DNA of 64,000 bases from Octopus vulgaris. Lineage: Eukaryota. The translations under genes and the position numbers were made by a program. The notes below the pieces were generated by a model. That model was not told the origin of the DNA. It made no database searches and saw nothing but the letters and a program-made list of their open reading frames with translations. The stretch covers positions 149,916,001 to 149,980,000 of the forward strand of contig OX597816.1 of the NCBI GenBank assembly GCA_951406725.2. The letters run 5' to 3'. Within the stretch, counting starts at the first letter, position 1; each line of letters starts with the position of its first letter. This document shows positions 6,601 to 62,608 of this stretch, piece after piece.

Positions 6601-9600
6601 GACAAACATAAAACTTTTAGGACTTCAATTTCATTATGATGGATGGACCTCATTAAGAGATATGCTCAGATCTGTAAGGCTGAAGTTGGGAACAAGGGGT
6701 GGTTAGACCGTCTCTGTTGAAAAGTATGGATTATCATACCTCTTATGTAACCCATAATTTCCATATATATATATATGGAAAATTGGAAGTTAAAATAACG
6801 ATAATAATGATTTCACACACATATACAAACATGTATGTTATATATTCTCTTACTCTTTTAATAACTAATTTGAGAAATTGGACTATGGCTATGCTGAGAC
6901 ACTATTTTCAAGAGTTTTACTTCATTATATTGATCCAATACTTATTGAGTCTAGTACTTATTTTATAGATATAATAATATGTTACATTTTTGAAATAAAG
7001 AAGTGCAGCTCAACACACTGGTAAACATACTATACATTTAGGCAACTGTGTAAGTGGTGTTAAGACATAGATTAGATATGAAGAATTTAAGAGGGTTTTG
7101 TTATATGTTAAAAGCAAAACAGACATCAACTGTGATAGCTTTATCAGGAATAGCCTTACTTATAGAGCCATCTTGGTTGAGAAGTTGTCTGTATGAGGAC
7201 TCTTCAGAGTTAGAGATCATTTTGGCAAGGTAAAACTGAAACTAATTAGCTGATTTTAAGCACTAAAAGGTTTGAGGCAGTATTATACAGTAGGGATGTA
7301 AAGTGGGTTGTCTTGATCAGATGGTCCAATGAAGAAGCAATGACAAATGAGTGAAGACTGGGTTTGGTGGTAAGACAAAATTCAAGAATGAAGCATGCTA
7401 TAACAATAAGAGATACAGAGGATGATAAAAGATATTTGTCTCTACTCCAGAATTGTGAGTGTAGGAGGCAGGTATTTCAATATCATGATGTACACACTCT
7501 GTAGCTATAGTGTTTTTGTTCTTTCCACGTTGTAGAATCATGTACCCACTAAGTGGCTATCTGAATGTAATTGATGCCAGGCTCATCTGACCGGCTCCTG
7601 TGCTGGTGGTATGTAAAAAGCACCCACTACACTCTCGGAGTGGTTGGCGTTAGGAATGGTGTCCAGCCATAGAAACATTGCCAGATCAGATTGGAGCCTC
7701 GTGCAGCCACTGGCTCTCCAGACCTCAGTCAAACCGTCCAACCCATGCCAGCAGGGAAAACGGATGTTAAATGATGATGATGATGATGATGATGAACTTT
7801 AGTAAAATAGAAATGACTGAACAGAATTGGACAATTAACACCTAAATAATTAGTTCAAATTCTTTGTAAGCATTATATTATGTAATTGAGGAATAAACTT
7901 CTTTTAATGTGCCTTAGTGTTTTTATGCCACTGAAGAAAGTTATTTGAGATAAGCATAAACCTTTAAAAGCCTTCAGGACACAGAACACATTTACTATAA
8001 TCTACAGGAAAAACTTCCAAGATATTACAATGTGATATAGAATCTCTTTTGAATTGTTAGTTATAGTCACTCCATGCATATTTGTCTCACAGTATATACA
8101 ATGAGACATTGCAGTATAATCTTTTTTTATGGATCTAATACAGATAAGAGAAGGTTAATCACAAGTAATAAGGATTCCATTAAACTAAAATACCAAACAC
8201 ATCCAGATACATCCTCCAGTAAGATTTCTAAAGGTTATTCCAAAGCTTGATAGCAAATAACAAAATTCCTGTTTGTATGTCCACTGTTTGGTATAAAAAA
8301 TATTCTTTACAGGAGTCCATAAGAAAAGTCAAAGGGAATTGATTTTGAATGGTACCTTAGCCATAATAAACTAAAATGTTTATGTTTAAAAATATATTTG
8401 TACAGACAGAAAAAAAAACCCAAGAGTGAATCAGCTTTTAAGGGAATAATAATTTCTTACGTTGGCACAAGACTATTTGTTTGAGGAAGGAATATTGTCA
8501 ATTAAATTAACTTCAATTTTTCACCTTGCAATAATTAACAGAAGTAATAATTAATAACTAAAAAACAAATATCTACTTTCATTGTGCAAGAATTTAGAAA
8601 CATTGGAAGTTACGTAAGGGATAGAAATGTTAGAGTGCTGAGTTAAATGCTTTTCAGGGTTTCATTTTATCCCTTTGTATTCTAAGTTCAAATCCTACTA
8701 GAGTGAACTTAACCTAAAGATGGGAAACCATTACATATTGGATTGCAACATCTAAGTTAACTGACATCTGACAAAAACACATTTTAACTAAACAAATATT
8801 TTACTAAACCTATTATTTTATAAATTATAATTTTGCAAAAGAAAAAAATATCTGTAAGAAAGTGTAAAAACAGAAAAGTTTTGGAGTAAGCACCTCTTTT
8901 AGCTTACAAATTTGCTTTTAAGAAAATTTTTCACATTTCTATATTTGAAATATGTTTGTAATTACTTTAAACAATTAGTTATAAGTATAGATAATGAAAT
9001 ATAAATAGGCATTGGTAAATTTTGCAATCAGTAGAAAAGATAGACTTAAATTAGCAAAAACATATTTTAGTATAATGGTTTTCCCTCAATTGTACTTCTT
9101 TCAGAAAGCTGTAAGTTCCCAACTTCTGATTTAGTCTTGCATTTCTTCAAAACCAATAAAATAAATGCAGGCTTTTACTGGAGTTTTCTTAGTAAGATTT
9201 GTGATTTTAACAATTGTAAGCAATCAATGTTTTAGTGCTACTGAAAAGCAATAATTATGTGTTATATAACAAACAAATAACATTGACAAATGCTTTTAAT
9301 TACAAGGCAGATAACACCACTATCCACTAACTGCAGTGTTGTATGTGAGTGTGTATATATATATATATATAAAACTTAGCATGGTTTTAAATATTTATCA
9401 GAAGAGAAAGAATAGATATTATACCTGGAATGACTTGATGAAGGTCCAGAGCAGGGTACGGATGCCCTCTCCTCGGCTCAATAGTTTAACTAACCTCATA
9501 ACACGGAATAGACGGAAGAAATTGATACTGATGATTGGAGAGCCTGGCTGTAAAACAGATATACACATATTTATGTAAGAAACAGAAATCATTTTGATAT

Positions 9601-62608: not shown

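Follow-up and report, generated by a model that had tools for sequence, protein, structure and literature searches.

Gene Content and Intron Architecture

The window, a 64,000-nt stretch of the Octopus vulgaris genome, carries on its minus strand part of the L-type channel gene Cav1, with exons that differ from Octopus Cav1 proteins at hardly any residue. Taken over 222 kb, the exons are near-identical to the Octopus sinensis Cav1 protein P0213 from aa 178 to aa 2026, and orthology over the four-repeat channel together with the C-terminal IQ region places the gene among the L-type alpha-1 subunits. The mapping covers residues from 178 on. The best PDB matches of the linker region were Cav1.2 chains, with weak E-values for a query of 59 aa. 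A search of the 2.8-Gb genome with the IVS4 exon found one near-identical copy, the other IVS4-like match being only 61% identical. Invertebrates have one Cav1 gene and vertebrates have four.

The constitutive IVS3 and IVS4 exons are separated by the span listed in Table 1. The first-pass annotation had described it as an intron of about 53 kb with phase-0 junctions, and measurement agrees (52,977 nt, GT..AG, phase 0 at both junctions); it is the longest among 39 mapped Cav1 introns, whose median is 2,380 nt. The accompanying statement that the other introns here are 1–3.5 kb long agrees with those that the window contains in full or in part (0.95–3.3 kb); gene-wide, two further introns exceed 30 kb (33,086 and 31,617 nt). 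The 31,617-nt intron (window-relative 190448..158832) lies within IS3, and the models show no alternative exon there.

Repeats, measured as the share of sequence matching other compared stretches of the genome and therefore given as a lower bound, constitute 14% of the span and 11% of window positions 1–9424; the near-equal load means that the size of the span is not explained by repeats. Recursive splicing was likewise set aside, the span having a single YAG/GTRAG site with a poor pyrimidine tract. No nested gene and no duplicate IVS3 exon, such as the vertebrate 31/32 type, was found among the 28 open frames of at least 110 aa in the span, a reverse-transcriptase fragment aside. This fragment is a 332-aa open frame of LINE type (family assigned by eye) on the plus strand at 38904–39902.

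Table 1. Cav1 exons, linker cassettes and candidate exons in the window, with positions counted from its first letter.
Feature	Position	Strand	Description
IVS3 constitutive exon	62525..62608	-	84 nt, end ...IYTEVN; contains the countercharge aspartate D4, which precedes the insertion point by 8 residues
Cassette A, RNSE	57285..57296	-	12 nt; O. sinensis RefSeq X1–X3
Candidate QD	56897..56902	-	6 nt, AG/GT flanks; single-copy region
Cassette B, RIDN... (16 residues)	44076..44123	-	48 nt; O. sinensis RefSeq X1–X4, Argonauta model, contigs
Cassette C, LSLDNS	31952..31969	-	18 nt; O. sinensis RefSeq X1, X2, contigs
Candidate YITSFEHE	31828..31851	-	24 nt, AG/GT flanks; 100 nt downstream of cassette C
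IVS4 constitutive exon	9425..9547	-	123 nt
IVS3–IVS4 skip span	9548..62524	-	52,977 nt, GT..AG, phase 0 both ends

Three Spliced Cassettes in the IVS3–S4 Linker

Cassettes A, B, and C are real spliced exons, and when all three are included, they divide the span into introns of 5,228, 13,161, 12,106, and 22,404 nt. All 10 members of the O. sinensis Cav1 protein cluster were examined, of which seven cover the linker. The O. sinensis RefSeq models X1 and X2 carry A+B+C, X3 carries A+B, X4 carries B, and X5 has no insert; the Argonauta model carries B, 15 of its 16 residues being identical, while the O. vulgaris model has no insert and, possibly coming from the window's own genome, was not treated as independent. 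Six Sepia-type proteins across the linker complete a comparison set of 13 cephalopod proteins; five of them have no insert, and the remaining one, P0121 (99.4% identity to Sepia pharaonis over 859 aa), has QRLDAS. The three octopus cassettes were thus already present in automated annotation.

A search of sequencing runs by the cassette B region gave 24 runs, none recorded as RNA or labelled by tissue, of which four were compared on 44001–44200 and two, X8 and X9, gave contigs. The single contig from X9 (study P6), 180 nt long with a depth of 3.4, reads IVS3-B-C-IVS4, and in X8 (study P5, under a different organism label), two overlapping contigs read IVS3-B and B-C-IVS4 at depths of 13.8 and 9.4, respectively. 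The contigs of both runs match cassette B exactly at 44076–44123 and skip cassette A, which is also absent from RefSeq X4 and X5. Their junctions fall at the exact exon edges over 18, 12, and 22 kb and therefore represent spliced RNA, which confirms B, C, and the non-canonical GC donor of C (GCAAGT, with an AG acceptor) and adds the form B+C, missing among the RefSeq forms. The RefSeq models are automated short-read chains, and the contigs are assemblies rather than single molecules.

Four exons (RNSE, QD, the 16-residue exon, and YITSFEHE) had been proposed in the first-pass annotation, and all four lie where it placed them, AG/GT-flanked, in frame, and stop-free. RNSE and the 16-residue exon proved to be spliced in RefSeq models, the latter also in RNA contigs. 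The list was incomplete in that LSLDNS, spliced in RefSeq models and contigs alike, was absent from it, probably hidden from a first reading of the sequence by its GC donor. All three cassettes preserve the frame and exist in included and skipped forms, which makes them linker cassettes in a sense that so far does not extend to QD and YITSFEHE.

Five of the eight possible combinations were observed (none, B, A+B, B+C, and A+B+C), giving linker inserts of 0, 16, 20, 22, and 26 residues with one glycine only. The proposal of combinatorial modules in this linker is borne out to that extent: instead of cDNAs that all skip the span or hold a single cassette, the forms A+B, B+C, and A+B+C exist besides the insert-free and B forms. 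The proposed independence of inclusion stands in part, as A and C vary freely with respect to one another, but each is found only alongside B. Cassette B is present in each insert-bearing octopus isoform, and the three missing forms (A, C, and A+C) all lack B; they were sought in octopus RefSeq models and in the three contigs from two runs that had been picked for carrying B, a sample both small and B-biased. This pattern fits a B core with add-ons, or else thin sampling. Dscam-type mutually exclusive duplicated exons were rejected as a model, since A, B, and C co-occur and have no evident sequence in common. The suggestion that this lineage expanded one cassette is weakened by the same lack of shared sequence and by the lobster/crayfish Cav1, which has its own two-module set.

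Further Candidates and the Chance Background

The span contains 2,412 phase-0, stop-free AG..GT/GC candidates of at most 51 nt. With 38 Cav1 junctions as its training set (the aa 260/261 junction being excluded from the 39), a splice model ranked RNSE third, LSLDNS 20th, YITSFEHE 35th, RIDN 209th, and QD 255th among them. As the real cassette B lies at 209 and YITSFEHE at 35, rank cannot tell true exons from false ones. An architecture filter combining a long AG-free zone, a branch point, and pyrimidines was passed by 11 acceptors against 3–6 expected from the other introns of the gene and the antisense strand; its thresholds were tuned after the four proposed exons had been seen and so as to admit them, and no clear excess of further hidden exons remained once these four were removed (P 0.08–0.58 across nine threshold sets). 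An exon-like appearance is thus no better than chance and the ranks do not separate, so transcript evidence must decide.

On that evidence, QD and YITSFEHE are unproven as exons. Their peptides are present in 0/13 cephalopod proteins covering the linker, and a search for them found no channel among 406 proteins, the lone pattern match being to a repeat protein that has no S4 motif. Among the three contigs chosen for B, QD is skipped in both that read the upstream junction and YITSFEHE in both that read the downstream junction. Most likely they are look-alikes or rare exons, and QD is likely no used exon. A larger array of independently included microexons, at least four or five in number once QD and YITSFEHE are counted (with YITSFEHE and C perhaps mutually exclusive) and giving 16–32 linker forms differing by cell type, is accordingly quite unlikely. 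It would draw on the AG-free zones of 44 nt (QD) and 94 nt (YITSFEHE), on the branch-point-like motifs of both (at -28 and -52 in YITSFEHE), and on their location in single-copy DNA 382 and 100 nt, respectively, from real cassettes; as the rank of B shows, a poor score is no bar to use, the RNA sampling is thin, and the QRLDAS of the Sepia protein resembles C in three of six residues without B being present. Against it stand the cephalopod proteins and contigs that lack both peptides, the absence of an architecture excess, and the lack of any A-only, C-only, or A+C octopus form.

Several other minus-strand sites were recorded. Those at 25840–25857 (MPLLLP), 22989–22997 (KLI), and 27344–27352 (SDK) pass the filter within chance and lie in the 22 kb that follow cassette C, SDK in repeat-covered DNA. 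A second donor on the QD acceptor (56888–56902) would give QDVNN, whose first three residues equal the start of the oyster insert QDVELD, probably by coincidence. A 42-nt phase-0, AG/GT-flanked stretch at 40440–40481 resembles the IS2 helix of the channel (E about 1), likely by chance; it lies in a single-copy region with an AG-free zone of 93 nt and is without transcript support.

Linker Inserts in Other Animals

Inserts at the same junction were compared across species from up to 15 members per protein cluster, large clusters being partly covered, so that the occurrences are minima. Among the models listed, scallops have TLDT, oysters have REKGDLK or QDVELD, and abalone have 15 residues, and inserts are also found in pond snails, the ribbon worm Lineus, a cockroach, and a wasp; no linker insert was found in the listed models of Mytilus (15/15), Mya, Mercenaria, Littorina, and Gigantopelta. 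A representative protein search with the linker returned 10 matches, none recognisably cephalopod, and of 53 candidates in a search of shorter proteins with the linker region, none scored. In the spiny lobster Panulirus, a 23-residue and a 7-residue module occur singly or together (in 1, 3, and 8 of the listed models). The two-module linker of decapods is known from RefSeq models of Panulirus, Portunus, Eriocheir, Cherax, and Homarus, with the modules skipped in crab models; one further protein, P0307, has a third piece of 5 residues. The decapod modules, as seen in protein models, occupy the same site as those of the octopus, but their sequences are unrelated. With two modules in Panulirus, multi-module linkers are not confined to the octopus, and the octopus array is a parallel case to that of decapods rather than a unique one.

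Repeated exon birth is cleanly illustrated by this one junction, where the inserts of molluscs, crustaceans, insects, and a ribbon worm are unrelated. The inserts also bear on a different reading, in which the cassettes are real but near-neutral: the extracellular loop would tolerate insertions, and its very long intron would gather lineage-specific exons with little change in gating. In its favour are the unrelated inserts found from scallops to decapods and insects and their absence from several listed molluscs; new-exon hotspots and rapid rewiring have been described (PMC8797185), and the reported effects of VSD IV are small, with little contribution to gating in Cav1.2 and Cav1.3 (PMC6161609). 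This reading is nevertheless rather unlikely given that Octopus and Argonauta share B with a single residue changed, that B and C are used under more than one organism label with all three cassettes in frame, and that in run X8 the B-C path has a depth of 9.4 against 13.8 on B.

In vertebrate Cav1, the cassettes of this linker (Cav1.2 exon 33, Cav1.1 exon 29, and Cav1.3/Cav1.4 exon 32) are like those of the octopus in their insertion point, in being in frame and optional, and in the presence of D4. They differ in organization, each vertebrate gene having one main cassette plus splice-site shifts, whereas the octopus has three separate exons at spacings of 12–13 kb, one of them using a GC donor. 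The likeness is one of position only, with none in sequence. The linker exons of Cav2.1/Cav2.2 are known as NP and ET. In these channels, very short S3–S4 linker exons are described for domain IV (e31a) and domain III (e24a) (PMC10657410); they resemble the octopus Cav1 in having tiny exons in both linkers, but unlike the octopus IVS3–S4 linker, they have a single exon per linker. Long reads of Cav1.2 from human brain have led to the linker being named a splicing hotspot (PMC6906184), and no paper on Cav1 linker splicing in cephalopods was found in the openly readable literature, supplements aside. For specialists, the array may be pleasing rather than very surprising, as the hotspot is known and the cassettes were in automated annotation.

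Splicing Regulation

Strict microexons are 3–27 nt long, a range that contains A and C and is exceeded by B. The acceptor of A has TGC at -9, an AG-free zone of 55 nt, and CTAAT at -46, and that of B has TGC at -12, an AG-free zone of 58 nt, and CTAAT at -19, while C has none of these features. Such a motif set arises by chance at 3–6 sites per 53 kb. For neural exons that depend on the eMIC domain, the architecture described combines a CUAAY branch point with a long AG-free zone and a UGC close to the acceptor; the programme is attributed to bilaterian ancestors (PMC8797185). The passages of that study that concern fly eMIC targets name the calcium-channel subunits stj, CG4587, Ca-alpha1T, and Ca-beta, the Cav1 gene not being among those given there (PMC8797185).

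An eMIC-like domain is encoded in the octopus genome, a PF15230 match above the cut-off (32.6 bits) being located at G000:C25:37317492-37317626; this stretch is likely the terminal exon of an octopus Srrm234 gene. From the motifs at both acceptors and the presence of this domain, A and B may be turned on in neurons via an eMIC/SRRM-type splicing factor, and C, without those motifs, would be under different regulation. The octopus exons resemble the neural microexons of the eMIC/SRRM3/4 programme in being short and frame-preserving and in the motif set of A and B, and are unlike them in the lack of motifs at C and the length of B above the 27-nt limit.

Predicted Effect on the Channel

In an alignment to Cav1.2, the insertion point lies directly after ...EVN, where IVS3 has just ended and exon 32 gives way to exon 33 (which begins PAEHT), and the D4 aspartate (D1327 in Cav1.2) is conserved at the same distance. 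The equation of this linker with that of vertebrate Cav1.2 exon 33 is therefore upheld, the insertion points being equal and D4 conserved. The preferred reading, considered probable, is that three frame-preserving cassettes of 4, 16, and 6 residues, used in at least five combinations, lengthen the extracellular IVS3–S4 loop by 0–26 residues and likely shift activation, in a range from a few mV to tens of mV. In the mechanism proposed, B would serve as the core with A and C as add-ons, and a longer loop may upset the contacts of the IVS3 aspartate (D4) with S4 arginine, in which case channels would most likely activate at more positive voltages.

The vertebrate cassettes provide the scale for this expectation. 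Exon 29 of Cav1.1 is reported to shift activation by about +30 mV (PMC4886277) and exon 33 of Cav1.2 by 6.3 mV with P = 0.052 (PMC6161609); longer or glycine-rich linkers are described as giving a larger shift (PMC5279877), and in short Cav1.3 variants, exon 32 is reported to give a negative shift (PMC7781618). By analogy, the octopus cassettes are likely to shift activation, in an amount and direction that these vertebrate shifts of both signs do not fix. The graded tuning of activation by tissue suggested in the first-pass annotation is likewise an expectation drawn from vertebrate channels.

In vertebrate Cav1, linker length, flexibility, and D4 contacts are still debated as determinants of V1/2, and the five natural octopus forms constitute a length-and-charge series that bears on them, B adding a net charge of -2 and C of -1. 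Linker exons that can be stacked would let a single Cav1 gene span several activation ranges. Modulation of Cav1.1 by gamma-1 reportedly depends on exon 29 splicing, and sensitivity to gating-modifier peptides is known for the NP variant of Cav2.1. The octopus inserts might by the same token mainly alter the binding of extracellular partners (auxiliary subunits or gating-modifier peptides) or glycosylation instead of intrinsic voltage dependence, an alternative that is improbable overall; the loop is extracellular, the added negative charge of B and C suits it, and a C-only form would make an N-glycosylation sequon, but no such form was seen and all five observed forms are without a sequon.

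Domain III Linker Exon and Other Cav1 Splice Sites

Outside the window, a 6-nt exon lies on the minus strand in the Cav1 domain III linker (G000:C3:150023608-150023613). All five of five O. sinensis models include it, while the O. vulgaris model and three Sepia-type proteins lack it; inserts in this linker are also found in clams, Lineus, and crayfish/lobster. As the exon sits in a long intron of its own, the two longest mapped Cav1 introns are both at S3–S4 linkers and both hold tiny exons. A bolder reading that takes in both sites would be a digital code set on a pair of voltage sensors at once, in which four to five separately regulated domain IV exons (A, B, and C, plus QD or a C-exclusive YITSFEHE) and the domain III exon, housed in these two introns, are switched by neuron type to give graded activation thresholds; so elaborate a scheme can be entertained only as a long shot.

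Two further alternative sites were also noted in the C-terminus, downstream of the window. One is a one-residue difference at aa 1624 of P0213 (Arg 1624), and the other is a basic exon of 15 residues (P0213 aa 2012–2026) that is missing in the O. vulgaris model.
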